A DNA stretch of 64,000 bases. It comes from a virus. The translations under genes and the position numbers were made by a program. Position 1 is the first letter of the stretch; every line of letters starts with the position of its first letter. Shown piece after piece: positions 1-48,062 of the stretch. A model generated the notes under the pieces. The model was not told the origin of the DNA. It ran no database searches and saw only the letters and a program-made list of their open reading frames with translations. The stretch lies in IMG/VR virus record IMGVR_UViG_3300020438_004435; one strand, written 5' to 3'.

Positions 1-352
1 CTACCATACCAAAATCATTTAATTTACCAGTAGATACCTTCTCACTTAAATCCTTAAAAAAATCCTGATTCATTGGCACAGTATCATGAGTACACCATAC
101 TATAAATTCTACATCATCATCAATATTATCTATCATTGTTTTTGCAGCCCACTGCAATCCTCTATCCTGATTAGGAATAAATTTTATATTATGTCTTGCA
201 CATATTTCTTTACCCTTAGCTATCTCCTCTGGTTCTGATGCATCATCTATATTATATAATTGAAATCCTCCTAAATCTACATGTTTAAGAAATACCGATT
301 CCAGCATATCATAATTGTTTCTTGATGATAAATAAATTGCTATATTACTCAT
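1..352 (-). CDS. GT2-family glycosyltransferase, 3'-truncated by window edge (not in ORF track)
   Basis: Hand translation from ATG at 352: MSNIAIYLSSRNNYDMLESVF...YNIDDASEPEE...FIVWCTHD. It has a GT2-type DDxS and a DxD-like position, is open to base 1, and its start overlaps the stop of the upstream gene. Confidence 0.65.
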   Translation of the reverse strand, partial: MSNIAIYLSSRNNYDMLESVFLKHVDLGGFQLYNIDDASEPEEIAKGKEICARHNIKFIPNQDRGLQWAAKTMIDNIDDDVEFIVWCTHDTVPMNQDFFKDLSEKVSTGKLNDFGMV

Positions 353-10653: not shown

Positions 10654-10667
10654 AACCTTTGCCCGTT

Positions 10668-11297: not shown

Positions 11298-11298
11298 T

Positions 11299-11853
11299 TT
11301 ACTTATCTCCTAATTTAGGTATATCTGGTTCACTCTCTTGCTTAATTGCTGATGTATTACTATCCTCTAAGAGCATTTCTTTTGGCCATTTATATTCACA
11401 AATTTTAATAGCATTTAATCTATCTTCCCTAAAAGTTCTATAGGATCCTTTAAGCCCTCCTGTTAATTGTCCTTTAATAATAGAATTATAATATGCTCTT
11501 GGATCTGGTGTAATTACCTTTTCAACCTTTAACTTTCTAGCTTTCAATCTTGAATTGGCCCATTCTAATCCTGTCCTAGCAGCTAATTGTTCTATTGCAA
11601 TTTTTGCTACACCATCTAGACTAATTGCATGTAACATTTTAACCTCATCCTGAGCTCTTTTTATCGTAGGAGATAATGCTAATGCCATATAGCGTTTGGT
11701 AGTTTGCTTACCTTTCCTATCAATCTTTGTATATACAAATTCCAATACCATACCCGCATCTATAGTTCCTTTATTGATTGGATATGTTTTTTCTATTAAT
11801 GCCTGGTGTGTACTAAGATTTCCCATCCATATGCTCCTTAAAGCCTTTACCAT
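11299..11853 (-). CDS. Hypothetical phage protein
   Basis: 184-aa ORF tightly packed in the operon; no motif recognised. Confidence 0.6.
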   Translation of the reverse strand: MVKALRSIWMGNLSTHQALIEKTYPINKGTIDAGMVLEFVYTKIDRKGKQTTKRYMALALSPTIKRAQDEVKMLHAISLDGVAKIAIEQLAARTGLEWANSRLKARKLKVEKVITPDPRAYYNSIIKGQLTGGLKGSYRTFREDRLNAIKICEYKWPKEMLLEDSNTSAIKQESEPDIPKLGDK

Positions 11854-12319
11854 CTAAATCCACTACGCCACCTATAGATGCCAATGCTTCCATAAATCTA
11901 TCTTTTTGATATGTTGATTTTTGCTTGATATCCAAAATTGTTTTGAAAAATTTACCTTCCTGATCTGGAATTGGATATTCCTTTTGCTCTTCTTCTTCAA
12001 GATCCCTAACAGGAATACTTTCCCAAGTCCAATCATCTCTATTACCGATAGGGTATACCATACCTTTACCTGGAACATTTATTACTGAAGGATACCAATT
12101 GATTCCTCTTAATTCATCCTCTACCTTTAATTCCGTAATAATTTCAGGTTGTGTTTTTTCTATATCCGTAACATATTCTGAATCGGTTATTAATAATGAA
12201 TTTGATGTAAATCCTGTTTTATAATCCAAATAAGATGAAACTCCATTCTTTTCATTATCTTCCTGAAAACAATATTCTAAATTTCCATCTATTGGACTTA
12301 GTATTCTTTTTTCTGACAT
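11813..12319 (-). CDS. Hypothetical phage protein
   Basis: 168-aa acidic ORF with an SD-like AGAGGG upstream; no function recognised. Confidence 0.6.
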   Translation of the reverse strand: MSEKRILSPIDGNLEYCFQEDNEKNGVSSYLDYKTGFTSNSLLITDSEYVTDIEKTQPEIITELKVEDELRGINWYPSVINVPGKGMVYPIGNRDDWTWESIPVRDLEEEEQKEYPIPDQEGKFFKTILDIKQKSTYQKDRFMEALASIGGVVDLDGKGFKEHMDGKS

Positions 12320-12321
12320 TC

Positions 12322-13692
12322 TTAAACCCTCTTTAATTGTGGCATAGTTACCTTTGCGCCGTTATTAATTTTTTCATTTTTCTTTGTTTTTAATTTAGGT
12401 AATTTAGGCATAGATTTTTCATCCGGTAATTGCAATCCTACCTGCTGCGGAACTTGCTTAACCACATCATCTATTATATTAACAAAAATTTCATTCATTT
12501 TATTAAGACTAAATTCCGTTTTAGATAAATGAGCTTGTTTACGAGCTCCTGGAATATATTCCTTATAACTTTTATATACATCCCTCATTATTCTTGATGC
12601 ATTATTATAATCCGCATAGAACCATTTCGATCCTTCATTAATTACACCTTTCCATCTTGCAGATTTATGAACCTCTTTTAATTCACCTGGTAATAAAATT
12701 GAATAATCTGGATGCAGGAAATCCTTTTGACCTGACCAATTAGATGCTATTACAGGTTTTGCTGATGTGCTAAATTCCAATAATGGTCTACCAAATCCTT
12801 CTCCTTTGGTAAAGGATACCATTGCTTTTACCTTATTATGATTATATAATCCATTTAATTCTCCTGGTTCAAGATCGCCGTGTAGGAAATAAACATTAGG
12901 TACTCTGCCGCCAATAGAATTACGTATACCCTCTACTCTTTGAATAAATTCATCCCTTTCACTTATACCAAATCCTGCTCCTGATGTTTTTAATATAAGA
13001 GCTGGTTGTTTATGCTTATGCTTGAAAGCATTGCAAAATGTTTGAATAAGCATTCCTGTATCCTTTCTATCATGACCCATCTTACCTTTAAGCCAATGTC
13101 CAACATATAGAAAACAAAATTCTTCTTCAATATTATCTAATTGTTCCTTTATTGTTTTAGGAACTTCAGCTTCCTTATTAAATACATCCGTATCAACTCC
13201 TTCAAATAATACTACAATTGATTTAGCTAATTTTAATTCACTAATTTTCTTTTTAGTCTTTTCATCTATCTTATCAAAAGTAGTATTATGGAATACCTGT
13301 GCAGAATGCTGAGAAGGAACTATAATAAGATCCATTCTATTGCAACCTTCAATCCATGATGCATCACAAATATCTGTTTCAATACCAGCTGTAATTCCTA
13401 TATTTGCTTTACCGATTGGTGAAAATTCATTTGGAACAGTAATTTGAATAAATACATCTGGTTGTTTAGGTAATTGAGGTGAATTCATAATACATCCTTT
13501 CATTGCCACTTCCGTTTCCGTAAGATTTTTATTATCAGATAATGCATCCATAGGACAATCACCCCATCTTGTAGATATAATATCTATATCATACTTATTG
13601 CTCTTAATTAGAGCTTTTATTAAGTCTCTTGCGTGGTCGCCGTATCCACTCCTATTTTCTATCGGCCCTTGAAATACTATATATGGTTTCAT
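12322..13692 (-). CDS. GT4-family (GT-B) glycosyltransferase
   Basis: SGYGDHARD, VGHW...RKD, TKGEGFGRPLLE and PVIASNWSG. Confidence 0.85.
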   Translation of the reverse strand: MKPYIVFQGPIENRSGYGDHARDLIKALIKSNKYDIDIISTRWGDCPMDALSDNKNLTETEVAMKGCIMNSPQLPKQPDVFIQITVPNEFSPIGKANIGITAGIETDICDASWIEGCNRMDLIIVPSQHSAQVFHNTTFDKIDEKTKKKISELKLAKSIVVLFEGVDTDVFNKEAEVPKTIKEQLDNIEEEFCFLYVGHWLKGKMGHDRKDTGMLIQTFCNAFKHKHKQPALILKTSGAGFGISERDEFIQRVEGIRNSIGGRVPNVYFLHGDLEPGELNGLYNHNKVKAMVSFTKGEGFGRPLLEFSTSAKPVIASNWSGQKDFLHPDYSILLPGELKEVHKSARWKGVINEGSKWFYADYNNASRIMRDVYKSYKEYIPGARKQAHLSKTEFSLNKMNEIFVNIIDDVVKQVPQQVGLQLPDEKSMPKLPKLKTKKNEKINNGAKVTMPQLKRV

Positions 13693-13694
13693 AA

Positions 13695-15161
13695 CTAATC
13701 CTGTCTATTTTTTATTTTATATAAATTAAATCGCTTTCTTGGTGTCCAATTTTCTAAAGCTGATCCCATCTGTTCTATAAGACTTAATCCCATTTGTCTT
13801 GATGAAAATCCTGCTTCGGACATAGCCCATTCATGGCCGATCATACCTCTACGCTTTCTTTCGTCTCTACCCATATCATAATTTTCCTTAATTGCTTTTG
13901 CAATTTCTTTATAATCTGCTCTATCATCAAATATATAAGGAGTTTGAGGAGAACCTTGAAGACTTCTATTAGATGGCCATATAGGTAATGCCCATTCACC
14001 CCATGTTATTTCAGGATTATCTTTCCATAAATCACGATCATGCATACTCTGAATTTCTAAATAATCATCTGCTGATAAATATTTTCCATTGCGTTTGAAG
14101 CCTACCTGATCCTGAAGTCCACCTGTAATATTATTAATAATCATCGTTCCACACATAATAGATTCTGCAGATGATAATCCAAATCCTTCATTTGATGCGC
14201 AATTAATAGTAGCATCGGCTCTATTATACATAAATCCTAATTCCTCAGTAGATTTATTACCCTCATCAAACATGATTAAATGATCCGGGCACACTGCATC
14301 TTTAACAGCTTGTAAATTTGTACCATTAGGATCAACCCTCGGAGTATGCATCATCAACAAACATTTACTAGCTTGTTCTTTCGTAAGTGTATTACAAAAT
14401 TCATTCCATGCTAATATAATATCACTGGTTTGTTTCCTTCTGATATTTCTATTATTATAAAATAATACGTATTCATAATCTTCATCATGTTTTAATAATC
14501 TTGATAAGAATTTCTCATATCTATCATATGATTTAGAACCTGCTTTGATAGGCTTAAACCATTTTTCAGGTACTCCATGTGGTAGATATGTTACCTGCCA
14601 ATCTTTCGTTTTCTCAACCTCAGATGGCCTATTCCAGTCTCTTACTTTACTTACTATATTATAGGTTTGTTTTGATATACAACCTAGCCAATCACATGAT
14701 TCATAGAAAGGAGCATTCCAATGAGGAATAGGCAAATCATCCCAAATTGTATAATAAAAAATTGGCATATCTTGCCTAATTTCATGTTCCATATTATATA
14801 ACCAATCCCAAAATCTTGGATCAGTAAAGTGTAATATAGCATCAGGCTTATCCGATTTTATAATATGTCTAATTAGGTCTGGATTACCATATCCACTAAA
14901 AGGGTATATAACAACCGATGCATCCGATACACCTGTTTCTTTTACTACATCTTGGCTAATATTTATTTTTTGCCCATTATCTGGATGTTTAATTGCTCCG
15001 CCAACTTGGACCCAATCATACTCATGGACCGAATTGAGAACTAATTCCCTTGACATTGTTCCTACACCAGAGTGCATCCTCATGTCATCCGATAATAATA
15101 AAATCTTTTTCTTTTTTTTCTTGTTTACGTCAACCTTTTTTAGTGTTGGTAATTTTGCCAT
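13695..15161 (-). CDS. GT4-family (GT-B) glycosyltransferase
   Basis: HSGVGTM, NRNIRRK and NEGFGLSSAESIMCG. Confidence 0.85.
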   Translation of the reverse strand: MAKLPTLKKVDVNKKKKKKILLLSDDMRMHSGVGTMSRELVLNSVHEYDWVQVGGAIKHPDNGQKINISQDVVKETGVSDASVVIYPFSGYGNPDLIRHIIKSDKPDAILHFTDPRFWDWLYNMEHEIRQDMPIFYYTIWDDLPIPHWNAPFYESCDWLGCISKQTYNIVSKVRDWNRPSEVEKTKDWQVTYLPHGVPEKWFKPIKAGSKSYDRYEKFLSRLLKHDEDYEYVLFYNNRNIRRKQTSDIILAWNEFCNTLTKEQASKCLLMMHTPRVDPNGTNLQAVKDAVCPDHLIMFDEGNKSTEELGFMYNRADATINCASNEGFGLSSAESIMCGTMIINNITGGLQDQVGFKRNGKYLSADDYLEIQSMHDRDLWKDNPEITWGEWALPIWPSNRSLQGSPQTPYIFDDRADYKEIAKAIKENYDMGRDERKRRGMIGHEWAMSEAGFSSRQMGLSLIEQMGSALENWTPRKRFNLYKIKNRQD

Positions 15162-17253: not shown

Positions 17254-17631
17254 TTATTTCCACTTTTTATTTTTAACAATTTGTGCAATAATACCATATA
17301 TTGAAAGGTCTTGAAATGTATCTTTTACTGATTCAGTCTTAACCTTTGCTTCCTTACTTAATAATACTAATTGCTTTAATCGTTGAATCTTATCATTCAT
17401 TCTGAACCATAAACCTGTTAATGCTACCTTTTCTTCTTCCGGAGTATCAAGATTGGATCCTACCGATATATTTCCTTTACCATAATCTAACATCTTACGA
17501 GCAAATAAATGAAATTGTTCTCTCGATATTTGTTCATATGCTTTATGAATATCAGGATACCTGTCCTGTAATTCCTGTATATCATTACAATAAGTTTTTT
17601 CTGCTGTAAAATCGCGTTCGTCTATTTTCAT
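17254..17631 (-). CDS. Nucleotide-modification-associated domain 1 (DUF1599-like, MazG-fold) protein
   Basis: RKMLDYG...RMNDKIQRL...ESVKDTFQDLSIYGII. Confidence 0.75.
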   Translation of the reverse strand: MKIDERDFTAEKTYCNDIQELQDRYPDIHKAYEQISREQFHLFARKMLDYGKGNISVGSNLDTPEEEKVALTGLWFRMNDKIQRLKQLVLLSKEAKVKTESVKDTFQDLSIYGIIAQIVKNKKWK

Positions 17632-19769: not shown

Positions 19770-21687
<1,918 letters not shown>

Positions 21688-21696: not shown

Positions 21697-22410
21697 CTAA
21701 TTTACGTTTGTTTGCACCATGTAATATTTTGATGCATATTCCTTATTCTTAAATGTTAATACAGCTAATCCATCTGCACTAACCTCCATTAGTCCTTCTT
21801 CATTATCTTTATTTGCCGCAAGAATTTCTCTAAGATATTCTGCACTAAATGAAATTGGTTGCATATCACCATCAGCTTCTGCTGATACATTAATATTAAT
21901 TCTATTACTATTATTATCTGAATGACCGAGAATAATTTGAGTAATACTATTTGATATTACAGTAAAATGCTCTGCATCACTCAAAGCATTCTTTGCCTTG
22001 ATAAATTTCATAATAAAGTCATTAGTAATTTTAATTCTTACAGTAGCTTCAGGAGTTGCTTTTAATTTAGGTGCTTTTGGTATTACATCTAAATCTGCAA
22101 GCATATAATTAAGTGCAACATCACTATCCGTAATTGTTATACCTATTGCTCTTTCATCTACCATTTTTAATTTGAGATCGATTGAATTGCCTACTACACC
22201 TAACATTTTCTGTAATTGGGATGTATTATAAATTCCTAATTCACAATCCTGCATTTGTAAATCATTTAATTTAACAACCCCTAATAATGTTTTACAACCA
22301 GATATAAATTCTGTTTGTAGACTATTATCAGAGATAGCCCATTTTACTGCTTCAATATTGTTGCCAAGTGAGTACTTTTCAACGAAACCCGTGAGTTTTT
22401 GTTTGTCCAT
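21697..22410 (-). CDS. DNA polymerase sliding clamp (T4 gp45-like)
   Basis: 237-aa beta-rich protein directly downstream of polB, with the clamp loaders nearby. Confidence 0.7.
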   Translation of the reverse strand: MDKQKLTGFVEKYSLGNNIEAVKWAISDNSLQTEFISGCKTLLGVVKLNDLQMQDCELGIYNTSQLQKMLGVVGNSIDLKLKMVDERAIGITITDSDVALNYMLADLDVIPKAPKLKATPEATVRIKITNDFIMKFIKAKNALSDAEHFTVISNSITQIILGHSDNNSNRININVSAEADGDMQPISFSAEYLREILAANKDNEEGLMEVSADGLAVLTFKNKEYASKYYMVQTNVN

Positions 22411-22436: not shown

Positions 22437-22468
22437 TATAAATATACAAAAAATATATTAAAATTCAA
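22437..22468 (-). promoter_or_regulatory. Hybrid promoter (class-I with 16-nt spacer, overlapping TATTTATA)
   Basis: TTGAAT-N16-TATATT whose -10 continues as TATTTATA; upstream of clamp-groS-groL. Confidence 0.55.
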
Positions 22469-25043
22469 AGAATTTCCGTATAATTTTTATATTTTTTTCA
22501 GGAAGATTTCCCCACTTCATTGCTATGTAAAAAGCTTCCAATTTGTTTTTCAATTCACCGTTAAAGATTTTATTATAATTTGTATACTTCCCAATAAAAT
22601 CTTTTATTTCTTCAGGATCATCATAACCCTTTAATGCACAACTTTCTATGCCTAATGGATTATCGGTGAGATATACCCATTTTATTTTATCACCATTATT
22701 AATTTTACCTGCATTCTCCTTATCATAATAGGTTAGCAAATCATTATAATTTATTGATGCCTTTACATGAGCAGGAACACCCTTAAACGATGTATTAAAT
22801 GGTTTATAGGTTCCTGATGCTGGTAAATATTTTCTAATATTTTTTACTCCTGTAGATTTGGCTATATCAACTATTGGATATGTAGGAATTGCTAATCTAA
22901 ATTCATAAATTTTATTATCTATCTCATCCTTAGGAACATTTTGTAAAATATCCATAAGAATTTCTCCAAGAAATTTCTTAAATGCTGCAGGATAATTTGA
23001 TCTTACTACGTCAATACCTTTAACATCTAATTTATTCACTACAACACCTTCGGAATTAATTATCCACTGTGCATATCTTTTTTTAGCTATCCATATACCT
23101 GACTTAGCTACAGTCTCCTGTTTAATATCAAATTTATGCGTATCAAGATTATGAAATTTTTTAGCATAAGGTGTATATGTATCATTAATATGATTTTGAA
23201 CCTCTTCAGCAATACCCAAAATCTTTTCCGTCATAATCTCATCATCAGATGTATCTATACCTGGAAATCTATGCTTAACAAGAGGTAAAGCTGAAAAGAA
23301 TACTGAGTCTGTATCTGTGTATATACAATGTTCTGTTGATGCATCCAATTCCCTATTATAATAATGATCAACTATCTTAGCCGTATTTTTAATTAATTGT
23401 TGACCTGACAATGTAATAGCTTCTGCATTATCTAAATCAAACCATCTAAATGTAGGAGATCCTAATACTCCATACATTGAATTTAGAAGAATTTTAGTAA
23501 CCCATTGTCTTTGGTGAAAGTATTCCCTTTTATCATCATCACCTGCTTGTGCATGCTTTTTCATTAAATTCTTAAAGGTCATTCTATCTTCAAACCACTT
23601 TTCCAAAATAGCTGGAATTAGGCCTTTCTTTCTTGTATTGTATATAGCCCCATTAGCTGCTATTGAATACCTATTTTCTTCCAACCAGGATCTAAGATGG
23701 CTTGTGGTTTCCCATTGAGTGTATTTGAATTTAGCATACTTATTTTTTACCTGACCCTCATATGGTCTATCTTCATTTTTAAGGAATGCCTGCAAATCAA
23801 AATCATGTATTGTAGATACCTTAGTATCTGGAGATATATTTAATGACATAATTAAAGATGGATAAAGTGATGTTAAATCTAAATCATATATCCATTCATA
23901 TCTACCAGGTTTTGGATCCATTACAAATGCACCACTATACTTAGCATCTTTTTTATTATCAAAATTCTTATTAGGCGCTACTACATTTATTGTTCTCAAA
24001 TATGTAAGGATAGCTCCTTCAAGAATCTGAGATTGTACATATATTTTTTCATATGGTACATGGCCTTTATGGCATATTGCTCTTGCTAAATCAATATATT
24101 TAAGCTTTTCATCCAACCTTTTTACTATCTCAACATCATTAAGGTTATATTCGATAAACTTATCTATATCGGTTCTAAATAAGTCATCTAATGTTCCGTC
24201 ATATTCTATCTTACCAAGATCAACCTCTATCTTACCAATAACATCCAATCTATATGATGATCTTTCATTGATTGTAAACTTTTTATATAGTGCTAAATAA
24301 TCTAATACATCAACACCCAAAAGATTATATTTTAATTCCTTATCTTGGCCACCCATCTTTGACCATTGATTTGCTTCTTTTACAATATTAATTCTACTTA
24401 ATGCATTTGCAACATCATGACCACATACTCTTGCCATCCTAGCATACAAATATGGTATATCAAAAAATTCAATATTCCAACCTGTTAAAATTGTAGGATC
24501 ATAATTCTTATAAGCTTCCATAAAGGTTTGTAATAATTCCTGTTCGGTTAAACAAGATATTATTTGAACATTATCTTTGATACTAGATTTAACCAATCTT
24601 TCAGGATCTAATATCAATACACCATATTCATTCTCACTTTTTAGCCAATAAGCTATTGATGTAATTTTATTCATAGGATTCCGAGAATTAGGAAATCCTT
24701 GTAAAATCTCTGTCTCAATATCAAAATAAAATTCCCTATGATTGGTTGATGGTTCATCTGAATGACCATATTCATCAATCAATACTCTGGTTTCTAATTG
24801 AACATCCGATTCATATATCTGACCCTTCTTTAACTCCTCGTCAGACCATCTACGAACCTGTTTAACGGCTTTACCATCTAAAGTGTATGATTTGCCTTTA
24901 GGATCTTTTTTATAGCCGTAGCGATAGTCTTTGAGCGGTCTTTTAATATAGCCATCTTCATCATCCCATATATGAGCCCAGCCCTTCGTCCAATATCCTT
25001 GCGGTGTTTGCTGAGGTCTTTCAATTGCTATATTTTGATACAT
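22458..25043 (-). CDS. Family B DNA polymerase (T4 gp43-like)
   Basis: FDIET and GWNIEFFD (exonuclease), DLTSLYPS, KILLNSMYG, YTDTDS and KKRY. Confidence 0.97.
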   Translation of the reverse strand: MYQNIAIERPQQTPQGYWTKGWAHIWDDEDGYIKRPLKDYRYGYKKDPKGKSYTLDGKAVKQVRRWSDEELKKGQIYESDVQLETRVLIDEYGHSDEPSTNHREFYFDIETEILQGFPNSRNPMNKITSIAYWLKSENEYGVLILDPERLVKSSIKDNVQIISCLTEQELLQTFMEAYKNYDPTILTGWNIEFFDIPYLYARMARVCGHDVANALSRINIVKEANQWSKMGGQDKELKYNLLGVDVLDYLALYKKFTINERSSYRLDVIGKIEVDLGKIEYDGTLDDLFRTDIDKFIEYNLNDVEIVKRLDEKLKYIDLARAICHKGHVPYEKIYVQSQILEGAILTYLRTINVVAPNKNFDNKKDAKYSGAFVMDPKPGRYEWIYDLDLTSLYPSLIMSLNISPDTKVSTIHDFDLQAFLKNEDRPYEGQVKNKYAKFKYTQWETTSHLRSWLEENRYSIAANGAIYNTRKKGLIPAILEKWFEDRMTFKNLMKKHAQAGDDDKREYFHQRQWVTKILLNSMYGVLGSPTFRWFDLDNAEAITLSGQQLIKNTAKIVDHYYNRELDASTEHCIYTDTDSVFFSALPLVKHRFPGIDTSDDEIMTEKILGIAEEVQNHINDTYTPYAKKFHNLDTHKFDIKQETVAKSGIWIAKKRYAQWIINSEGVVVNKLDVKGIDVVRSNYPAAFKKFLGEILMDILQNVPKDEIDNKIYEFRLAIPTYPIVDIAKSTGVKNIRKYLPASGTYKPFNTSFKGVPAHVKASINYNDLLTYYDKENAGKINNGDKIKWVYLTDNPLGIESCALKGYDDPEEIKDFIGKYTNYNKIFNGELKNKLEAFYIAMKWGNLPEKNIKIIRKFFEF

Positions 25044-25237: not shown

Positions 25238-25738
25238 TTATATACTTTTTAATTCTTCGTCTGTAAAAAATTGTTTTAGATTTGGTCTGAAATAATTAAT
25301 TGATTTCATCACCTTATTATCACTACTTCTATATACCACCCATCTGTCACCAACCTTTTCATAATGACAAGGATGGCCTTTTTCTTCTGATCTTAAAGCA
25401 ACAGTTGCCTTTGCTTCACTTTCTGTAGCACATGATTTAGACATATTTGAAGCTTGTACCTCTTTATATGCTGGTTCTATTCTATCTTTAAGACCATGCA
25501 ACATAGCTCCATTTCCTAATGATACATAAGTAATATCCGCTAATGCATCTAATACTTCTACTATATCACCCTTTTCACATGCTTCTTTATATTCCGCTAA
25601 TTCTTCCATAATAAAATCATATACAAACATCCATTCCTTTTTATCTGGAATATTAGGTGTATAATTATTTGGTTTGCCGAATGTAGCATTAAATTCCTCT
25701 ACCTCACTTATAAATGGTACTTTTTTATTATCTTTCAT
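25238..25738 (-). CDS. MazG/PRA-PH-like nucleotide pyrophosphohydrolase
   Basis: EELAEY...EVLDALADITYV...SNMSK. Confidence 0.85.
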   Translation of the reverse strand: MKDNKKVPFISEVEEFNATFGKPNNYTPNIPDKKEWMFVYDFIMEELAEYKEACEKGDIVEVLDALADITYVSLGNGAMLHGLKDRIEPAYKEVQASNMSKSCATESEAKATVALRSEEKGHPCHYEKVGDRWVVYRSSDNKVMKSINYFRPNLKQFFTDEELKSI

Positions 25739-25739
25739 T

Positions 25740-26390
25740 TTATAATCCTCCTATAAATTCATAAAACTCTGAACGAGCTAAATTATTATTATCCATAAAT
25801 ACACCAGACATCTTTGCTGTCTTCATTGTTGAATCGTGCTTTACACCTCTTACACATGCACACATATGTCCAGCTTCTACCATAACAGCTACACCTATAT
25901 TTCCACCTGTAACCTTATTTATATGATCATGGATTTGCATTGTTAAATTTTCCTGCACTTGCGGTCTTCTTGCATAAAATTCCGCAATTCTATTTAATTT
26001 ACTCAATCCAATAATTTGACCATCCTTTGAAGGAATATAAGCTACATGAGCCTTGCCTATAAATGGTTGATGATGATGAGAACATAATGAATGTATTTTA
26101 ATATTACCTTGAAATACCATACCATCATACTTATCCACATTATCAAATGCTGTAATTTTAGGTTCATTATTATAACATCCTTCAGCTATATCATTTACCC
26201 AAGCTTTAGCTACTCTCATAGGAGTATCATTTGAATTAGGATCATTTCTCCAATCAAATCCTAAAGCATCCATATATTTGGAATATGCTTTAGCTGCTTT
26301 CTTAATTAACCTTTCTTGTTGTTTCGGTGTTAATGGTAAATTACCATTTGCATATTTTAATTTCTCAGTCATTTGTTTTCCCTTTTGCAT
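25740..26390 (-). CDS. folE: GTP cyclohydrolase I
   Basis: TPMRVAK, SLCSHH, GLSKLNR, RRPQVQE and HMCACVRG. Confidence 0.96.
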
Positions 26391-26883
26391 AAATATTTTC
26401 TAAATTTCTACTTAACCCTAAATCATCTAATCCATATCCTACTACCCATTCATCATTTATCTCAAATCCATATAAATCAATTGGATGTGTATTATCTTTT
26501 CTTTTTAATAAAGATACTATACTAATTCTATTTGGTAATTGTTGATTAAAATGAATAACTAATTCCTTCATTGTATTTCCTGTATCTATTATATCATCTA
26601 TAATATACAAATTTTTTCCCAATAAATCAACTTCTACATCACTTTTTATTTGAACTCCTGAAGAATTATCTTTACCGATATATGATTTTGCTCTTATGAA
26701 ATCAATCTCACATAATCCATTATACTCTGATACTAAATCTGTAAAGAATTTATAAGCTCCATTTAATACACATATAAACACTGGTGGTAAACCATTATCA
26801 TATTTAGTAGTGTGTTGTTCTAATTGTTCAGCCATTATCTTGATACGATCGGCTAATTGAGGTTTATCTATTAATATGTCCAT
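26365..26883 (-). CDS. hpt: Hypoxanthine/guanine phosphoribosyltransferase-like
   Basis: [16 protein letters not shown] (PRPP loop) and VVGYGLD. Confidence 0.9.
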
Positions 26884-27323
26884 TTAATAATATCTTTGAA
26901 TCGTTCATCTTTTGCGTCTATCCTACATAATCCACCATTCAATGGACCAATACAACAATTTATGGATGCTATTACCTTTCTCATATCCGGCAAGCTATAC
27001 CAGCATGCTACATTATTTTTTATATCTACGTGGTATATTCTATCGGATTTTGATTTCCAAAACCACCCAGGACTGTAATCCTTTTCAAATTCAAGATAAA
27101 AATGTCCATCATTTAGATTACCCTTACTATCTAGATAATATGCATTATACCAGCTATCTTTTTTAATACCGAAATCTATTCCATCTGTCTGCGCTTTCCA
27201 ATCTTCTCTTAGATCAATAACTTCATCATAAACCGTATTTAATTTATTAAATAGCCATTCCTCTGCTTTACCACCTTTTAATCCTGATACACCAAATTTC
27301 TTGGTTAATTGTTCTGTACTCAT
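26871..27323 (-). CDS. PD-(D/E)xK nuclease-like protein
   Basis: GGKAEE (helix E), GIDF, LDSK, then YLEF and GWFWKSKSD. Confidence 0.65.
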   Translation of the reverse strand: MSTEQLTKKFGVSGLKGGKAEEWLFNKLNTVYDEVIDLREDWKAQTDGIDFGIKKDSWYNAYYLDSKGNLNDGHFYLEFEKDYSPGWFWKSKSDRIYHVDIKNNVACWYSLPDMRKVIASINCCIGPLNGGLCRIDAKDERFKDIIKWTY

Positions 27324-27329
27324 ATTTTA

Positions 27330-27482
27330 TTATTTTTGTTGTTTATCATATTCATGTATTGCTATTCTTAATTTTGTAATCAGATCCTTTATATCCAACG
27401 GATCCATGGTTACCGCACAACAGGTATCTTCCACCTGATCTTCGATTTCCTTTAATATAGCATATATTTCCTTTATTGTCAT
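27330..27482 (-). CDS. 50-aa protein translationally coupled to queE (not in ORF track)
   Basis: MTIKEIYAILKEIEDQVEDTCCAVTMDPLDIKDLITKLRIAIHEYDKQQK; TAATG overlap with the queE stop; fills the gap. Confidence 0.65.
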   Translation of the reverse strand: MTIKEIYAILKEIEDQVEDTCCAVTMDPLDIKDLITKLRIAIHEYDKQQK

Positions 27483-28255
27483 TATACACCACGATCTGTA
27501 TCATATGCTATAATATGATCCCTACCTGTCATATTATATCCATGTTCTGCAACCATTTCAAATACTAATGGATACATTTTAACTAATGTCTCTCTAGTAT
27601 CACCAGCTGGCATAACATAGGTCTTATCTTTTGGTATATCCAATTCAATTCTATAATCCTCAATTTCCTTAAGATTTTCCTCTGTGCCATCCCATACAGG
27701 CTTGAAATGATAATCCTTATGATATGACATCATTTGTTTTATTGCTTCCGTATTTTGTCTAAGTCTATTATGAGTCTTTATCATTTTTTCATCCACCACC
27801 TTACCTGCTGGAGTAATAGCTCCTATTACTGGAACACTATTACTAAATTTAGGACTGATAGATAATAGATCTAATGGATAATCTGTTTCTACAAATTTAC
27901 TTCCCTCTGTTTCTATAGTAACTATAATACCTCTTTCATTAGCAAAATGTGTTATTTCATTCACCAATGCTGGATGCATGGTAGGAGATCCTCCTGTTAA
28001 CATCATTTCCTTTACCTGAGGGTTCTCATCATAAATTTTAATAATATCATTAAAGCTGAATGTTCCCTTTTCTGGGTGTATTGATGTATACCATGAATCA
28101 CACCATCCTCCATCACCAAAATAACATCTATGAGTACAACCTGTTGTCCTTACGGCAATTGTTGGCCTTCCAAATCTACTTCCTTCTGATTGTACACATC
28201 TATATACTTCTAATATAGGTAATACTTTATTATAATCTTCTATTCTTTTACGCAT
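27482..28255 (-). CDS. queE: 7-carboxy-7-deazaguanine synthase (radical SAM)
   Basis: YRCVQSEG, CTHRC-x7-CDS, LTGGSP, IETEG and SISPK. Confidence 0.92.
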   Translation of the reverse strand: MRKRIEDYNKVLPILEVYRCVQSEGSRFGRPTIAVRTTGCTHRCYFGDGGWCDSWYTSIHPEKGTFSFNDIIKIYDENPQVKEMMLTGGSPTMHPALVNEITHFANERGIIVTIETEGSKFVETDYPLDLLSISPKFSNSVPVIGAITPAGKVVDEKMIKTHNRLRQNTEAIKQMMSYHKDYHFKPVWDGTEENLKEIEDYRIELDIPKDKTYVMPAGDTRETLVKMYPLVFEMVAEHGYNMTGRDHIIAYDTDRGV

Positions 28256-29024
28256 GAGACTCTAATAATTTTTCTACATGATCCTTTGCTGTTTCCCAAC
28301 CATCAATATATTCCACAGGATCCTTTCTGTTTAATTTTAAGAATGCTTCAATTCTTTCTACCGATGATGCTGATTTATAATCTGATCTTCCCTCTGCATC
28401 AGGTTTATATGATGTATTTGTTCTTTTATAAACCTCATCAAAATCTAATCCTAATACAGCGCAAGCTGCTTCACCATCAACTAATATACCATATTTATCA
28501 TCCTCCAAATATGGTGTAATATATTTTACTTTATCAGCATCCCAATTACCCTGCTTGAATGCTTCATAATCTGCGTCTCTAAATTCCTGTCTACAATCAG
28601 GATAAATAGCATGATCGCCTGCATGTATACCCATTGCTATTTTTACTTCACAATCATTTTGTTGAGCTATAGATAATGCTACTGCTTGAATGATAGATGA
28701 GAATATTTTATTTCTGTTAGGAACAACGGTATCTTTCATATTGTCCTCTTCATAATGACCTTCAGGTACCTCTTCACCGCCTTTTACAAGATTTGAATCT
28801 AATAATCCAACCAATCCTTGTAATGTTATTCTTTGATATTTTACAGAATGACCATTTCTATCTAAATACTCTATTAATTCCGCTGCTCTTTCTAATTCTA
28901 CATTATGCTTTTGACCGTAATCAAAACTTAATGCTGTTACTTCATAGCCATGTGCCAATAAATGTAACAATACTGTACTACTGTCCATTCCACCTGATAA
29001 AGATAATACTGCTTGTTTTTTCAT
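28248..29024 (-). CDS. queC: 7-cyano-7-deazaguanine synthase
   Basis: SLSGGMDS PP-loop, FDYGQKH, VPNRN and HAIYPDCR. Confidence 0.95.
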   Translation of the reverse strand: MKKQAVLSLSGGMDSSTVLLHLLAHGYEVTALSFDYGQKHNVELERAAELIEYLDRNGHSVKYQRITLQGLVGLLDSNLVKGGEEVPEGHYEEDNMKDTVVPNRNKIFSSIIQAVALSIAQQNDCEVKIAMGIHAGDHAIYPDCRQEFRDADYEAFKQGNWDADKVKYITPYLEDDKYGILVDGEAACAVLGLDFDEVYKRTNTSYKPDAEGRSDYKSASSVERIEAFLKLNRKDPVEYIDGWETAKDHVEKLLESHA

Positions 29025-29026
29025 AT

Positions 29027-29647
29027 TTATTCTCCTATTTTTTCTAGTGTAACGTCCTTTTCTTCCATTTCAATCTTACCTGTTTCTTCTAGATAATCCT
29101 TTATTTCCTGAACTCTTTCATCTATGCCTATTGTCTCTAATTCTACTACCTCTAAATCAGGATGTCCATTCTTTATTACATGAATAGTATTTTTCATATG
29201 TATAGCTATCTTTTCCTGATACTCTGCATCAGTATCCCTTACACCATCCTCTTTAAGAAATTCTTTATAAGGTGGAATATATATAATTAAATCGAATGGA
29301 AAAGTATGCATAATAGCATTCATAATCCTACTTGAATAATTAACCGATTGTGAACTAACAAATCCATCTTGCATACATTGCATTGCATAAGCATGAGAAT
29401 CAATTATACATCTATCAAATAATGAATATTTGTGTGCATATTGAGCTTCTTGTGCATTTCTTAAATGAGTAAGAGTAATTAAATCTTGCGAATAATCATC
29501 CCCTTCTTTATTTATTTTTACATTAGAATTCTTAGCTAATGATCTAACCACTTCATCATATACATGCATCCATGGCATAGCTACTTTTAATTTATTTACT
29601 AATGTTGTCTTACCTGTTCCCTGTGCTCCTACAAAAGCTATTTTCAT
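29027..29647 (-). CDS. Nucleoside monophosphate kinase-like P-loop protein
   Basis: GAQGTGKT, FDRCIIDS and EDGVR. Confidence 0.75.
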   Translation of the reverse strand: MKIAFVGAQGTGKTTLVNKLKVAMPWMHVYDEVVRSLAKNSNVKINKEGDDYSQDLITLTHLRNAQEAQYAHKYSLFDRCIIDSHAYAMQCMQDGFVSSQSVNYSSRIMNAIMHTFPFDLIIYIPPYKEFLKEDGVRDTDAEYQEKIAIHMKNTIHVIKNGHPDLEVVELETIGIDERVQEIKDYLEETGKIEMEEKDVTLEKIGE

Positions 29648-29670
29648 ATTTTTCTCCTTTATTATAATAT

Positions 29671-29699
29671 AATATACAAAATTATTTTAATATATCCAA
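29671..29699 (-). promoter_or_regulatory. Class-I sigma70-like promoter
   Basis: TTGGAT-N17-TATATT upstream of kinase-queC-queE-nuclease-hpt-folE-mazG-polB. Confidence 0.7.
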
Positions 29700-30434
29700 C
29701 ACATATCGCTGATTTTTTAGCATTAATTCCTCATTTACTGAATATGGTTCCTCTAAATCAATTGTCCAATCGGGCTTCATATAATCATATTTATCCTCAA
29801 ATTTTATTCCATCTATGGCACAATGATATACTATACTAGTATCCACTCCTCTTATTAAGGATTTTTCTTCTGATGTATATTCCTTGAATTCATCTACTGT
29901 ACTCCAACATCCTAATAAATGAATATCTTTATTTTGAGGATTATTTGCTAATGCATATCTTACCGCCTCTGGCCTTCCTCCAGCAAATTGTGTCTCAGTA
30001 ACCTTTGGTACTGCTAATACATCTACATCATCATATTTGCTTAATGTATCCCATGTACTTTTCCATTCTTCAGGATTCTTTCCATGACAAACTACCTGCA
30101 ACTTTGTTTCTTCCATCATTAACCATAATTCAACCTTTGATAATGCTATATCGGTTGATTTGATTGTAGCTTTACCATCTCTATATACATCTGGTAATAC
30201 TATTTCTGATGGTCTTAATTCCTCTGCTGCTTTCATTACAACATCTGATTGTAATGCTTTATTACCTAATTCAATTAAAGAATTATCTAAAATGACATAT
30301 TCTCCATTAGCTAATTTTTGTTTATAAAATTCCGTATATTTAGGATATTTTAATATTAAATGTGTTAATGCCATATGATAATCAGTATTATCATATTTTA
30401 GGTCGTGTGTTGGACAAATAAATGCTACTTTCAT
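29682..30434 (-). CDS. TGT/DpdA-like TIM-barrel protein (divergent)
   Basis: Ordered motifs ILDNS, LPDV, VCHG, HLLG and GVDTS parallel the DSG/D/HG/HxxG/DS pattern of TGT-fold transglycosylases; located beside queD. Confidence 0.6.
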   Translation of the reverse strand: MKVAFICPTHDLKYDNTDYHMALTHLILKYPKYTEFYKQKLANGEYVILDNSLIELGNKALQSDVVMKAAEELRPSEIVLPDVYRDGKATIKSTDIALSKVELWLMMEETKLQVVCHGKNPEEWKSTWDTLSKYDDVDVLAVPKVTETQFAGGRPEAVRYALANNPQNKDIHLLGCWSTVDEFKEYTSEEKSLIRGVDTSIVYHCAIDGIKFEDKYDYMKPDWTIDLEEPYSVNEELMLKNQRYVLDILK

Positions 30435-30443
30435 ATTATATTC

Positions 30444-30998
30444 TTAAATAAATGTTTTTGGATTATTATTTTGCTTTACATCATCATCTGTATCAGACAT
30501 AGTATTGCCATTAGGTATACCTGTTATTTCTCTAGGTTGATGAGTATCTACATTTGGATAGTATATTGCTGAATTATTTGTTCCGCCTTCAAATGATTCT
30601 ACCTTCAATACCCTTACTCTTCCGTTTGTTTCTTCTAACATCTTATCATTAATAAGATTATATACCCATTCTGCATATCTTTCACAACCAACATGATCCA
30701 TAACCCTTAATTGAACAAGTCCTACTTTATCCATCTTTCTAAATATTTCTAAATGTGGATCATCTGCAGCTACGACTGTTGTATGATCGAATTGATTTGC
30801 TAATTCCTCTTTGATGCCATTTCTTTTGAAACACCCAAAATCACAAACATAGTTCATGTGATCCAATTCACCCTCGAACCATACCTTAAATTTTAATGCA
30901 TACCCATGCACGAATTGGCAATGTGAATGTGTTGCTCTGTGTTGTCTAAATGCTGTACTAAATCCATCAAATATTTTTGTACTCTTAAATTGTGTCAT
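30444..30998 (-). CDS. queD: 6-carboxytetrahydropterin synthase
   Basis: HCQFVHGY, DFG, FDHTTV and GCERYA. Confidence 0.9.
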   Translation of the reverse strand: MTQFKSTKIFDGFSTAFRQHRATHSHCQFVHGYALKFKVWFEGELDHMNYVCDFGCFKRNGIKEELANQFDHTTVVAADDPHLEIFRKMDKVGLVQLRVMDHVGCERYAEWVYNLINDKMLEETNGRVRVLKVESFEGGTNNSAIYYPNVDTHQPREITGIPNGNTMSDTDDDVKQNNNPKTFI

Positions 30999-31476
30999 TT
31001 TTTTCTCCGTTTAGGTTATATAATTCTGATTGATGTAGATCATCGCAGAACTTTTCGTAATTATTTATTAATGAGCTTTTATATCTATGATATTCATGCC
31101 CGGGTTTTCCATTAAGTGGTTTTCTTAATCTTTCAACAATCCTATTTCTGAGTATCATTGAAGCACTCATATCAGGTTGCCAATCATTATGGTATTTTTT
31201 AGGAAATTCATTAAGGTCTAATTTGGTTCCAGGTTTGAAATTACGTCTTCGCATTTCATTATTGACTGCACCTAATCTCTTTTTAAGATATACTAATTTA
31301 TTCTTAAAAAAATTTATATGACCCGTTCCCATCTTAAATATTGCAGGAACTGGAGATTTAATCTCAAAACCATGTTTTCTTAAACCACCTGTGATCATAG
31401 TGATTTCTACACTTTCAGCTATCAAATGCTGATCTGATAAATGTTTAGGATCTACTCCTATATTAACTCTTGCCAT
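30985..31476 (-). CDS. denV: Pyrimidine-dimer DNA glycosylase (T4 endonuclease V-like)
   Basis: MARVN...LSDQHLIAE...GTGHINFF..K...EMRRR; start moved to the ATG at 31476. Confidence 0.88.
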   Translation of the reverse strand: MARVNIGVDPKHLSDQHLIAESVEITMITGGLRKHGFEIKSPVPAIFKMGTGHINFFKNKLVYLKKRLGAVNNEMRRRNFKPGTKLDLNEFPKKYHNDWQPDMSASMILRNRIVERLRKPLNGKPGHEYHRYKSSLINNYEKFCDDLHQSELYNLNGEKNDTI

Positions 31477-31488
31477 AACTATTTTATT

Positions 31489-31517
31489 AATATACAAAAA
31501 ATTATTTTAACTACCAA
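31489..31517 (-). promoter_or_regulatory. Class-I sigma70-like promoter
   Basis: TTGGTA-N17-TATATT upstream of denV-queD-TGT-like. Confidence 0.72.
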
Positions 31518-31554
31518 ATTTATTATAAATTATTATTTTTATACATTTCAATGT

Positions 31555-31743
31555 TTATTCCCATTTTCTATTGTATTTTTCCCTTTGATCAATTAATACA
31601 TATTCTACTGTATCGTGATGACCACAATGAGGACATCTTAATTTTTCCAATTTATCTGCCTCATTGATTTTCCATTCACCTTCGCATTTTTTATTGCTAC
31701 ATTTGTAAATGTATGTATGTCTTATAAATACTTTGTGTCCCAT
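31555..31743 (-). CDS. Small zinc-ribbon protein
   Basis: CSNKKC and CPHC. Confidence 0.6.
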   Translation of the reverse strand: MGHKVFIRHTYIYKCSNKKCEGEWKINEADKLEKLRCPHCGHHDTVEYVLIDQREKYNRKWE

Positions 31744-31780
31744 TTGAATACCCCAATTGTTTATTAGTACACATAACCAT

Positions 31781-31981
31781 TTATATATTATTTTTATATG
31801 GACAATGTCTGCAGTTAGAGTTGCAGCAAGAGCCTCTTCTTTTATGATACATTTCGGTCATAACCATTTTTCCCTCTTCCCAATAAAATTCATCTGGTTT
31901 TAATTTAGGTTTAAGGAATTCCTTATAATATAAATCCTGTATCCAATCCACTTTATTTGACCTCACAACTTCCTCCTGCAC
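31781..31981 (-). CDS. Cys-rich small protein (DUF5522-like)
   Basis: YWEEGKMVMTEMYHKRRGSCCNSNCRHCPY. Confidence 0.7.
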   Translation of the reverse strand: MQEEVVRSNKVDWIQDLYYKEFLKPKLKPDEFYWEEGKMVMTEMYHKRRGSCCNSNCRHCPYKNNI

Positions 31982-33812
31982 AAGCTAATTCGCCTGCAAG
32001 ATTTGTATTATCATCTATTTCTATTACATTAGTTAAATCAACATTCTGTAATGATTTTAATAAATCATCATATCTTTCCTTTGTTATGTCCTCAAAAGGT
32101 GCTTGTGTATATGATCCACCATCATGAGGTAAAACAGAAAGGCCATTATAATGATTTCTATTATTCCACATCCATTCTCCCGCTAATTCCCAATCATCTT
32201 CCTTTAATGAAATGGTTGCCGAAACATTATGCGTATTAGATCCATTCCTATGACCTGATTTAACCCATTCAGTAGCTATCTTTTTTACTCTTTCTAATAA
32301 TTGGAAAGGTGATTCTGTTCTCATTATAGCACCATTCGGGGCTTTTTGAGGAACCTGTATAACTGCTGTATCATGTGGTCTGAAATATTCATCTTCAACT
32401 AATTCAGGATGATTATTAATAAGATGGGTATATATTGATTCATTTTTACCTACCCTTATTCTTCTGATATAAAAATCATTGTGCCATGCATGGATACCTG
32501 ATGATGTTCCTAATGCTAATGATGTTGTTCCTGCTGGTTTAACCGTAGTTGTTCTAGCTGCCTTATTAACACCTATTATTTTTGCAATTCTTGAATTTTC
32601 CCTCTTAACTTTATCAGCCGCGATCTCCATATCATATCCTAATACTACACCCGATCCAATACCAGTCATTGAAACACCAATTAATGCATCCTTCTCAGTT
32701 GTTTCTCTCCATACATCTCTTAAATAATGGAAATCAGTATATCCAGCTTGTAGAGTACCAATAAATGCTGCAGCTTTTACTCTTTCATTAAGATCCTCTT
32801 GAGATTCTATATCACTTGCATTTACTTCACATAAATTACAAAATTGATAAGGTCTTAAAGCAATTTCACAGCATGGATTAGTTCCCCAATCTTTATCATT
32901 ATTAAAATATATGCCTGGTTCGCCTGCTCCACTCAATTTTACCCTATCCCAAATTTCCATAAAGAATTTTTTGGTAATTTTATGTCTCATTAGACATGCC
33001 GAATTATTTGCTCTACCCCTTTGTGGATTCAATTCCCACCATGGCCCAGCTTTACATGAAATCATTTCATCATCGTCTGCACTAAATAAACTAATTAAGG
33101 CTGCTCTTCTAATACCACCTGCTAATACTGCATCAGCAATATGGCATATAATATCATGAGCTTCTAAAGTGGTTAATCTGGATCCATTTTCCTTTTGTTC
33201 TAATATACCACCCACTTTTAATATACATTCCTTAAGAGGTTGTGGCCCTGGAGCTTTACCACCTGATGTTACTAATTGTGCGCCTTTAGGCCTAACATCT
33301 GAATAATCAAATTCTATTCTACTTCCTCCACCATTCATATAAGACTTCATAAGAACCTTTACTGCATCAGCCCATCCTTCTATAGAGTCTCCAATTAGGA
33401 ATCTTCTTTTTCTTTTAGGATATGGCTTTTGAATAATAGGCAATTTTGCTATATGATGCTTTTGTACTGAAAATCCGACACCGGTTCCGCCTAATAATAA
33501 AAACATAGTCTCATTAAATGAATCTAAACTATCTATTGGAAGGTATGCACAATTATATATTCTATTTGGTGATATTGTTATAGGTTTACCTGCGAATTGC
33601 ATTGATCTCATAGATGGTAATACCTTTTTGTCATACACAAATTTATATTTTTCATTAATCTCATCCTCTAATTGAGGATATTGTTTAATATGCATATTCT
33701 TATTACGCGTTACCAATTCTTCCCATGTTTCCCTGCGGTTCAATTCCGGTAGGTATTTTGCATATTTCATATAGACAGTGATGTCCGATAGAATTTGTGT
33801 AGAAATTTCCAT
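31953..33812 (-). CDS. nrdJ: Class II (adenosylcobalamin-dependent) ribonucleotide reductase
   Basis: PSMRSMQFAG, NCAY, GGIRRAA, TNPCCEI, VKPAGT and C-terminal CAGGSC. Confidence 0.93.
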   Translation of the reverse strand: MEISTQILSDITVYMKYAKYLPELNRRETWEELVTRNKNMHIKQYPQLEDEINEKYKFVYDKKVLPSMRSMQFAGKPITISPNRIYNCAYLPIDSLDSFNETMFLLLGGTGVGFSVQKHHIAKLPIIQKPYPKRKRRFLIGDSIEGWADAVKVLMKSYMNGGGSRIEFDYSDVRPKGAQLVTSGGKAPGPQPLKECILKVGGILEQKENGSRLTTLEAHDIICHIADAVLAGGIRRAALISLFSADDDEMISCKAGPWWELNPQRGRANNSACLMRHKITKKFFMEIWDRVKLSGAGEPGIYFNNDKDWGTNPCCEIALRPYQFCNLCEVNASDIESQEDLNERVKAAAFIGTLQAGYTDFHYLRDVWRETTEKDALIGVSMTGIGSGVVLGYDMEIAADKVKRENSRIAKIIGVNKAARTTTVKPAGTTSLALGTSSGIHAWHNDFYIRRIRVGKNESIYTHLINNHPELVEDEYFRPHDTAVIQVPQKAPNGAIMRTESPFQLLERVKKIATEWVKSGHRNGSNTHNVSATISLKEDDWELAGEWMWNNRNHYNGLSVLPHDGGSYTQAPFEDITKERYDDLLKSLQNVDLTNVIEIDDNTNLAGELACAGGSCEVK

Positions 33813-46751: not shown

Positions 46752-48062
46752 TTACTGCAATACATTATAATTGTCTCCTCTCTTAGTTTTGATAGGAAAA
46801 TATAGTGCTTCTTCTACATCATGTAAAAATGAATCCTCATCACTTGGGTGGTAATCAAATGTGAAGGAATCGTAAGTGTATAAAATAAGTTTTGATTTAT
46901 ATTTATCCATAACATTAATTAATTTATCCAAAATTTTACTGTTATATTCTGTCTCTAATGATTGTAGAAAATAGTTTAACAATTTCGGTGGATTCATATC
47001 CACTAGATTAGAAGCATATAACTTTCTTTTATATAAATATGTAGAAATATAACTTTTGGCCTTATATTCCTTCCACAATTTCTTTGTAAATATATCTATT
47101 TTATTAAAAAATTCAATACTTTTCATTTCACTTGGAATACCTCCATATAAAATTCTAAATGATATTGTTTTAGCTTCTTTATATTCCTCGTCCGTTAATA
47201 CATCCTTACCAAAATACTGCTTACCTAAATACATGTGAATAGATTCATCAGGAAATTTATAATCTATAACCTCAGCCATCATTCTTAAATGGTATGCATC
47301 AAAATCACATTCAACAATTTTACCATTCTTAAATCTACTTATATATTTTTCCCTCGTGCCGTCTTCCTTATTAAGAGCCGCATAATTAATACCACCATAT
47401 CTATTGGATGGTCTACCTGTACTAGTATATAAATTATATTGTGAATACTCAAACCCTTGCATAGTAAATAAACCCGATTCCTCTATTTTATATAAATTAT
47501 ATAAGGTATTGTTATTATACGTATTATATGCATCCCTATCCACCTTATCAAAATCATACTGTTTATACGCGATTTCCTTAAGTTTACGGCACTTTTCCAA
47601 GTGTTTGAATATAGGAATAAGGGTGCCAATCTTTGGAAAATTGTAATATTTACGTTCTATAAAATTATGAGCTACTGTATTGTTATTTGATAATTCTAAT
47701 GGTATATTAGTATGAAACCAATTAGCTAAATTGAGATCTAATATCTTTTCACTTTCAATCTTATTCCATTTTAATATATGTAATAATTCCTTTTTATCTG
47801 GTGTAAGTATTTGTGTAAAATTTGATAATATTTTAGCCGCCTGATCAAGATCAAATGATGTTAAAGCTTCTGGGTGATTCATAGGAATAATAAACTCATG
47901 ACCCTCATCCTTATCTATGCCTAAATATAAATAAAATAAACATAAATCATTTTTAGCTGGATGTTTGTATATATCAGAGAATATAGGTATCACAAAAGCC
48001 GTTGAAAACTTTTCCGACATATTAAATAAACTAACTACACTTTGTGGAGTTTCTACAATCAT
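46752..48062 (-). CDS. Short, divergent family A DNA polymerase
   Basis: TSTGRPS, motif A DFDAYHLR, motif B AKTISFRILYGG, LLNYFLQS and motif C TYDSF. Confidence 0.8.
   Translation of the reverse strand: MIVETPQSVVSLFNMSEKFSTAFVIPIFSDIYKHPAKNDLCLFYLYLGIDKDEGHEFIIPMNHPEALTSFDLDQAAKILSNFTQILTPDKKELLHILKWNKIESEKILDLNLANWFHTNIPLELSNNNTVAHNFIERKYYNFPKIGTLIPIFKHLEKCRKLKEIAYKQYDFDKVDRDAYNTYNNNTLYNLYKIEESGLFTMQGFEYSQYNLYTSTGRPSNRYGGINYAALNKEDGTREKYISRFKNGKIVECDFDAYHLRMMAEVIDYKFPDESIHMYLGKQYFGKDVLTDEEYKEAKTISFRILYGGIPSEMKSIEFFNKIDIFTKKLWKEYKAKSYISTYLYKRKLYASNLVDMNPPKLLNYFLQSLETEYNSKILDKLINVMDKYKSKLILYTYDSFTFDYHPSDEDSFLHDVEEALYFPIKTKRGDNYNVLQ

Follow-up and report, generated by a model that had tools for sequence, protein, structure and literature searches.

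A DpdA3-family transglycosylase in a phage 7-deazaguanine gene cluster, and a possible pre-replicative route to guanine substitution

Genes for 7-deazaguanine synthesis lie next to replication genes in a 64,000-nt stretch (the window hereafter) of IMG/VR virus record IMGVR_UViG_3300020438_004435, which is a portion of a large AT-rich phage genome. The closeness of its proteins to those of Flavobacterium and Cellulophaga phages points to a Bacteroidota host, and the phage habitat is probably marine. A first-pass annotation had described folE, queD, queE and queC, interleaved with a hypoxanthine phosphoribosyltransferase gene (HPRT), a kinase, a MazG-like pyrophosphatase and a barrel resembling tRNA-guanine transglycosylase (TGT) or DpdA, and had read the cluster as a pathway that substitutes guanine by a logic similar to that of Z genomes, with dPreQ0 as the predicted base and HPRT as the point of entry. 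These genes prove to be real and co-oriented. The general idea, namely that the phage replaces most or all of its guanine with a 7-deazaguanine, most likely preQ0, is favoured at moderate odds, but not the route through HPRT: a probability of about 0.55 is given instead to a pre-replicative route through the barrel itself, here assigned to the DpdA3 family, that would swap the base on a free nucleotide before DNA is copied.

Organisation of the locus

All genes of the cluster are located on the minus strand and almost abut. They are listed below in their order of transcription, in which two small open reading frames (ORFs) separate the reductase from DenV, and a 63-aa ORF lies between the MazG-like gene and the polymerase:

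31953-33812, minus: class II monomeric (triphosphate-type) ribonucleotide reductase (RNR), a lineage core gene whose product has the monomeric triphosphate reductase 1l1l as its nearest solved structure
30985-31497, minus: DenV pyrimidine-dimer glycosylase, a passenger gene
30444-30998, minus: QueD
29682-30434, minus: guanine transglycosylase of the DpdA3 family, a minimal TGT barrel of 250 aa that keeps D50, D82, H117 and D198 (catalytic), with a short Ins8 and no clamp tail
29027-29647, minus: P-loop (deoxy)nucleoside/nucleotide kinase, homologous to immuto gp203 and CP220 gp057
28248-29024, minus: QueC of a type lacking the zinc motif, 68% identical to immuto QueC
27482-28255, minus: QueE radical SAM enzyme
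26871-27323, minus: 150-aa protein without family, with a weak lead to PD-(D/E)XK/NOV_C; a passenger gene
26365-26883, minus: HPRT-type purine phosphoribosyltransferase (PRTase) with a canonical site, probably recycling guanine
25740-26390, minus: FolE, GTP cyclohydrolase I
25238-25738, minus: MazG-like all-alpha dNTP pyrophosphatase of DR2231 fold, 71% identical to immuto gp208; predicted substrate dUTP or dGTP
22458-25043, minus: family B DNA polymerase (PolB) with a C-terminal hydrophobic-x-x-FF tail
21697-22410, minus: gp45-like sliding clamp, from its position after PolB and an Atlas feature match (0.95) to a cluster in which 33% of members carry PF09116

DenV, the 150-aa ORF and the clamp had gone unmentioned in the first-pass annotation. 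The RNR gene does lie upstream of the cluster and PolB downstream, the latter just outside positions 25,238 to 33,812, and this adjacency does not discriminate between the possible routes to modified DNA, since clamp and polymerase genes neighbour dpdA in DpdA1 phages too. Profile hidden Markov models (HMMs) of QueF, DpdN, DpdL and the TGT of a sister clade described below find no match in the window (the QueF profile matches FolE only), and Pfam scans of 30 ORFs of the window, which included few of the large ones beyond 48 kb, show neither ArcS nor a canonical TGT; the reported lack of queF, arcS and canonical tgt stands within these limits. The window tRNAs, Arg(tct), Glu(ttc) and Ala(tgc), include no GUN anticodon, as stated earlier, and scans with Rfam and for promoters and terminators return tRNAs only, with counts otherwise at chance level.

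The gene layout is kept in other assemblies and in IMG/VR relatives. Of 80 viral loci carrying this type of HPRT, QueE is found within 10 kb in 68, and FolE and PolB are nearby in 67 and 71; a chance clustering is not credible given the QueE count.

The barrel as a member of the DpdA3 family

The TGT/DpdA fold suggested for the 29682-30434 product is upheld, and its sequence places it in the DpdA3 family. There is no informative Pfam or NCBIfam match, and the tblastn matches in cultured phages are limited to phiST CGPG_00065 (E 9e-10), immuto DpdA3 (E 6e-7, a homology also recovered by phmmer and alignment), Campylobacter CP220-type gp056 (E 2e-6 for CP220 gp056), proteins of Bacillus/Weizmannia phages and, as a weak match, one from a Rhizobium phage. 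The predicted structure (pLDDT 93.5) has its best fold matches among TGTs and DpdA 7ui4 (Z 16-18). Residues D50, D82, H172, G175 and D198 are invariant in the DpdA3 alignment, the catalytic aspartates are invariant across 101 homologues, and a profile alignment to Salmonella DpdA places the DTS motif on Asp256 and the HG/QG motif on His181, assuming a 20-residue tag offset.

The family is very large (5,626 representatives, or about 5,600 clusters at 50% identity), and its member in the window is linked to genes for FolE, QueD, QueE and QueC. All three DpdA3 phages measured so far (CP220, phiST and immuto_2-6A) have 100% of their guanine replaced, the bases being dADG, dDG and fdPreQ1, while modification reaches at most 30% with the other DpdA families (Cui et al. 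2023, PMC10516641). The same authors found DpdA3 inactive in an E. coli test, could not reconstitute the activity, and propose a post-replicative insertion; they also cite the presence of free ADG nucleoside in CP220-infected cells, and the possibility of a modified dGTP in Campylobacter phages had been raised before (PMC6884629). Variants of the locus exist: L059 carries a tandem pair of DpdA3-family genes upstream of PolA, and a set of small DpdA3 phages (L016-L032, L262) has a QueC or QueT-like gene and MazG with no folE, queD or queE nearby, the last three genes being also absent from the complete genome G034. Such small phages would use a precursor made by the host or imported.

How much of a nucleic-acid enzyme is left in DpdA3? 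About 52 residues follow the nucleophile Asp in the window protein (family median 55), the corresponding counts being 101 for DpdA1 and 173 for the TGT of the sister clade. As the Ins8 region builds the DNA-binding surface in bacterial DpdA (PMC10164549), DpdA3, judged from its alignment, is a transglycosylase lacking most of the DNA-binding insertion. The C-terminus differs as well. Within one phage lineage, a hydrophobic-x-x-FF tail ends PolB in 54/55 cases and the 420-aa sister TGT in 20/21, but DpdA3 in 0/19. A QELF-type tail ends DpdA1 in 50-63 of 72 proteins, and either tail is found in only 0-5 of 242 DpdA3 homologues, depending on the motif. We take both kinds of tail to bind the clamp from the example of T4/RB69 gp43, and the clamp-binding-like tail is a correlate seen in the present analysis, with no published criterion for DNA-level DpdA behind it. 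The sister TGT gene sits directly before the clamp gene; at DpdA1 loci (L090-L179), where the QELF-type beta-clamp motif stands at the protein end, dpdA1 directly precedes a phage-encoded clamp gene. The short post-nucleophile region and the missing tail favour free nucleotides as the substrate of DpdA3. A conserved LKQFF at the C-terminus of the window MazG (25238-25290) resembles the PolB tail; it may be structural, and no clamp binding is claimed for it, as immuto shares the motif and has no detectable clamp of this family.

Partner genes and the step of guanine exchange

The kinase gene adjoins DpdA3, or lies at most two genes away, in 5/5 cultured phages inspected, and a full-length kinase is encoded in all nine large DpdA3 relatives at least 78% complete versus none of three genomes with the alternative TGT. 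Within 10 kb, DpdA3 loci have the kinase in 17/85 cases and dNTPase-like genes in 43/85, DpdA1 loci in 0/85 and 10/85, respectively; Fisher tests of such co-occurrences ignore relatedness. The association with a kinase likewise favours an action of DpdA3 on free nucleotides. The kinase profile lies closest to YorR and a deoxyguanosine kinase, so that the enzyme may act on a nucleoside or on a monophosphate. This profile misses the phiST-type kinase (genome G016 scores zero although locus L207 has one), which makes absences soft. Apparent matches of about 310 aa turned out to be clamp loaders and were taken out, and an apparent kinase loss in L109 corresponds to a 100-N scaffold gap.

The role of the MazG-like enzyme stands at about even odds between a supply of dGMP with depletion of dGTP, as for MazZ, and the plain dUTPase of the phage. 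It is found with DpdA3 (within 10 kb) at 31/60 loci, and never accompanies the sister TGT. Where it is replaced in DpdA3 phages, its slot holds a 164-aa DCD-like protein without dUTPase motif V, a canonical dUTPase being encoded elsewhere in sister phages. No other dUTPase is seen in complete genomes with MazG, which favours dUTP, while one complete relative has the slot protein together with a separate canonical dUTPase, which favours another substrate. The 164-aa DCD/Dut-fold family (L207:10670-11164, L012:12958-13452, L018:9360-9911), apparently without the deaminase glutamate and directly beside dpdA3 in some distant phages, is a candidate dGTPase or archaeal-type dUTPase. Dut-fold enzymes of Z phages cleave dGTP and dATP (PMC12884076).

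HPRT scores 132.8 bits against TIGR01203, slightly below the cut-off of 150, matches HGPRTs of the PDB (E 2e-29), and has the phosphoribosyl pyrophosphate (PRPP) loop, the SY loop and the purine-site residues. Positions D100 (corresponding to the Asp of canonical HPRTs that acts on N7 of the purine), K/R128, W/F146, D153 and R159 are fixed across clusters with QueC, with QueF and DpdN, with DpdL or with the alternative TGT. Phages of the two transglycosylase types intermingle on the tree of HPRT, whose purine-binding residues are constant whatever base is predicted. The same HPRT is found at 26 of the 80 loci in sister phages that carry the clamp-tailed 420-aa TGT and have QueC, this MazG or the kinase nearby in none. 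Recycling of released guanine is the more likely role of this enzyme, and the simplest, because both phage types share a guanine-ejecting enzyme and a GTP-consuming FolE. These HPRT and que loci without DpdA3 could have suggested a PRTase-only route, which is discarded as they possess the 420-aa TGT-like gene. The sister loci (for example L184:13038-15772 and L209:13048-16162) carry FolE, QueD, QueE and HPRT without QueC, and, between PolB and clamp, a 146-aa protein, an optional DpdL, a GT-B glycosyltransferase and the TGT-like gene with the C-terminal tail of PolB; their proteins have nearest cultured homologues of only 20-32% identity, and their DNA may contain glycosylated CDG or DG.

Taken together, these data suggest the following route. 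FolE, QueD, QueE and QueC, all present, turn GTP into free preQ0 by established chemistry. DpdA3 would then exchange guanine for preQ0 on a free deoxyguanosine compound (most likely dGMP, possibly dG or dGTP) by the double displacement of TGTs, to which its fold and catalytic residues correspond. The product would be raised to the triphosphate by the adjacent kinase and host kinases and inserted by PolB, the released guanine being returned by HPRT to GMP/GTP to feed FolE and the reductase, with the MazG-like enzyme providing dGMP and depleting dGTP, or acting as a plain dUTPase. There are precedents in Z phages: DmtZ exchanges the base on dAMP (PMC12884076), and MazZ makes dGMP whose phosphorylation is completed by host enzymes (PMC8342488). 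A broader proposal, put forward more tentatively, is that the TGT-fold DpdA3 left nucleic acids and underlies pre-replicative guanine substitution throughout a very large phage family, its partners being a kinase, the recycling of guanine and a dGTP pyrophosphatase that can be exchanged between MazG, Dut/DCD-fold, DUF5664 and DUF1599 types; the genome would here be fully dPreQ0-substituted.

Several observations weigh against an exchange on free nucleotides, which is suggested by comparison and departs from the published, post-replicative view. A recognisable NMP kinase is missing from four complete 44-52 kb DpdA3 phages (three of which have MazG or a DUF1599-like gene close to dpdA3), and the kinase is within 10 kb in only 12 of 42 DpdA3 lineages, many loci being truncated, so that the notion of a kinase always accompanying DpdA3 was rejected. 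One sub-clade has its kinase 50-80 kb from DpdA3, and members of the kinase family are also encoded in 86 Streptomyces phage records that lack any match to DpdA3. The MazG fold is closest to DR2231, a dUTP-cleaving enzyme solved with dUMP and dUMPNPP; MazG is present in two of nine near-complete DpdA3 relatives and absent from the other seven; and MazG and Dut/DCD-fold genes are fully exclusive (38 versus 14 with none shared at HPRT loci, 0/60 at MazG loci). Net charge, isoelectric point and the CxCxxC zinc motif fail to distinguish DpdA3 from the DNA-acting DpdA1, and were dropped as evidence. As for the controls, the sister TGT is presumed to act on DNA, the DpdA1 set comes from a single narrow clade, DpdA3 loci were the source of the HMMs, and the loci are phylogenetically non-independent. 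No nucleotide-level activity of DpdA3 was found in the literature, within an incomplete search coverage.

In the published model, DpdA3 replaces guanine by preQ0 within DNA that is nascent or already complete; HPRT recycles guanine, MazG serves as a dUTPase, and the kinase and RNR are ordinary enzymes of precursor supply whose genes group with those for replication. This model draws on these same kinase-less genomes and on the MazG fold and its exclusivity with Dut-fold genes. It also agrees with the homology of DpdA3 to proven nucleic-acid transglycosylases, with the frequent position of dpdA3 directly before a polymerase gene (polymerase within 10 kb in 38/42 lineages), and with the position of its describers (PMC10516641). 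However, every guanine of 80-180 kb genomes would have to be flipped by an enzyme without most of the DNA-binding insertion and clamp tail that its partially modifying relatives keep, and the model explains neither the two or three unrelated kinase families found beside DpdA3 and never beside DpdA1, nor the failure of DpdA3 in E. coli. We consider it a serious reading, though rather unlikely.

Entry through HPRT, as originally proposed, is improbable. In this scheme preQ0 or CDG would be joined to PRPP by HPRT, the ribonucleotide phosphorylated by the kinase and reduced by the class II RNR, dGTP destroyed by MazG, and the product inserted by PolB; it can invoke CDG-accepting PRTases of the PF00156 family (TubE, PMC6112128), the tight linkage of HPRT to folE and queE, the triphosphate-type RNR upstream, and a PRTase somewhere in two of the three fully substituted phages. 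Yet no PRTase is found in CP220, BSP7 or Youna2, one is nearby in only 6/42 DpdA3 lineages, and 7-deaza-GTP would reach RNA polymerase. The distribution of HPRT, including the sister loci that lack nearby kinase, MazG and QueC, and an active site unchanged across clusters predicting different bases, contradict this entry, which would furthermore leave DpdA3 without a job despite its preserved catalytic residues. That the cluster merely boosts host queuosine precursors or folate, leaving phage DNA unmodified or lightly modified, is very improbable: phage que genes were once interpreted so (PMC6884629), but DpdA3 is intact, the measured DpdA3 phages are all fully substituted, and the window holds no GUN tRNA or canonical tgt match.

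If the exchange on free nucleotides is correct, 7-deazaguanine modification of DNA would no longer be post-replicative in every case, as has been stated, DpdA3 would be the first free-nucleotide TGT, and 7-deaza-dGTPs and fully substituted DNA could be obtained enzymatically. DpdA3 was named a DNA transglycosylase by homology; an action on nucleotides would account for its failure in E. coli, where its partner enzymes would have been lacking and the substrate assayed would have been the wrong one.

Predicted base, known systems and other window genes

Provided that the DNA is modified, dPreQ0 is the probable base, as the window QueC is 68% identical to the zinc-less QueC of immuto, whose base derives from preQ0. 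QueC keeps the SGGxDS, YxQxHxxE, VPxRN and YPDC motifs and the essential Tyr, while the C(x)8CxxCxxC zinc motif is missing in 22/22 lineage members, as it is in immuto. QueF is absent genome-wide in three relatives at least 92% complete that have DpdA3 and QueC, and the QueC-terminal type is therefore real. By analogy with CP220 (DpdA3, divergent QueC, no QueF), dADG is a possible alternative. The phage would thus represent a QueC-terminal DpdA3 variant, and a fully dPreQ0-substituted genome was not found reported in the literature.

The closest known system is that of immuto_2-6A (PMC10516641), which shares DpdA3, FolE, QueD, QueE (67%), the zinc-less QueC, the MazG-like enzyme, the kinase and a PRTase. 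In contrast to immuto, the window phage has no QueF or DpdN, so that its pathway should stop at preQ0, and it has PolB and a clamp instead of PolA, and a full HPRT instead of a short 131-aa PRTase. In CP220 (Campylobacter, dADG) and phiST (Cellulophaga, dDG), DpdA3 likewise has a P-loop kinase next to it and is accompanied by a nucleotide hydrolase, either HD-domain or MazG, but the QueC of CP220 lacks two canonical motifs and no PRTase accompanies it, while phiST has DpdL and no QueC. DpdA1 systems (phage 9g, CAjan, iggy) resemble the window in placing FolE, QueD, QueE, QueC and a TGT-fold enzyme beside replication genes, and differ by partial modification, a longer C-terminal region, the QELF clamp-type tail, and no nearby kinase or PRTase. 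The likeness to the Z-genome pathway (PurZ, DatZ, MazZ; DmtZ, DutZ; PMC8342488, PMC12884076) is one of logic only, namely pool editing, complete substitution, and a base swap on a dNMP by DmtZ; the base is another, the folds are unrelated, and the chemistry, demonstrated there, is here a prediction. TubE/ToyH 7-deazapurine PRTases (PMC6112128) share the PF00156 fold and the proximity of folE, queD and queE, but belong to antibiotic clusters (tubercidin synthesis for TubE), whereas the phage enzyme fits canonical HGPRT models with a canonical site. The gene set of the window is already known and its locus is one of many. The present analysis adds the contrast within the lineage, the exceptions that lack a kinase, and the mutual exclusivity of MazG and Dut.

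Elsewhere in the window, GroEL and GroES are encoded between the clamp and clamp-loader genes (19770-21687), and a run of about 14 genes (345-15161) includes an oxidoreductase, an NAD-dependent epimerase and several glycosyltransferases (GT1, GT2, TOD1-like, PLOD-like), which may act on the virion, the host surface or DNA. A 436-aa protein (46752-48062) has a weak DNA_pol_A match (E 5e-6, below the cut-off) in this PolB phage, and a 125-aa ORF (17254-17631) weakly matches a DUF1599-like profile (E 0.003), possibly representing a second all-alpha nucleotide hydrolase.

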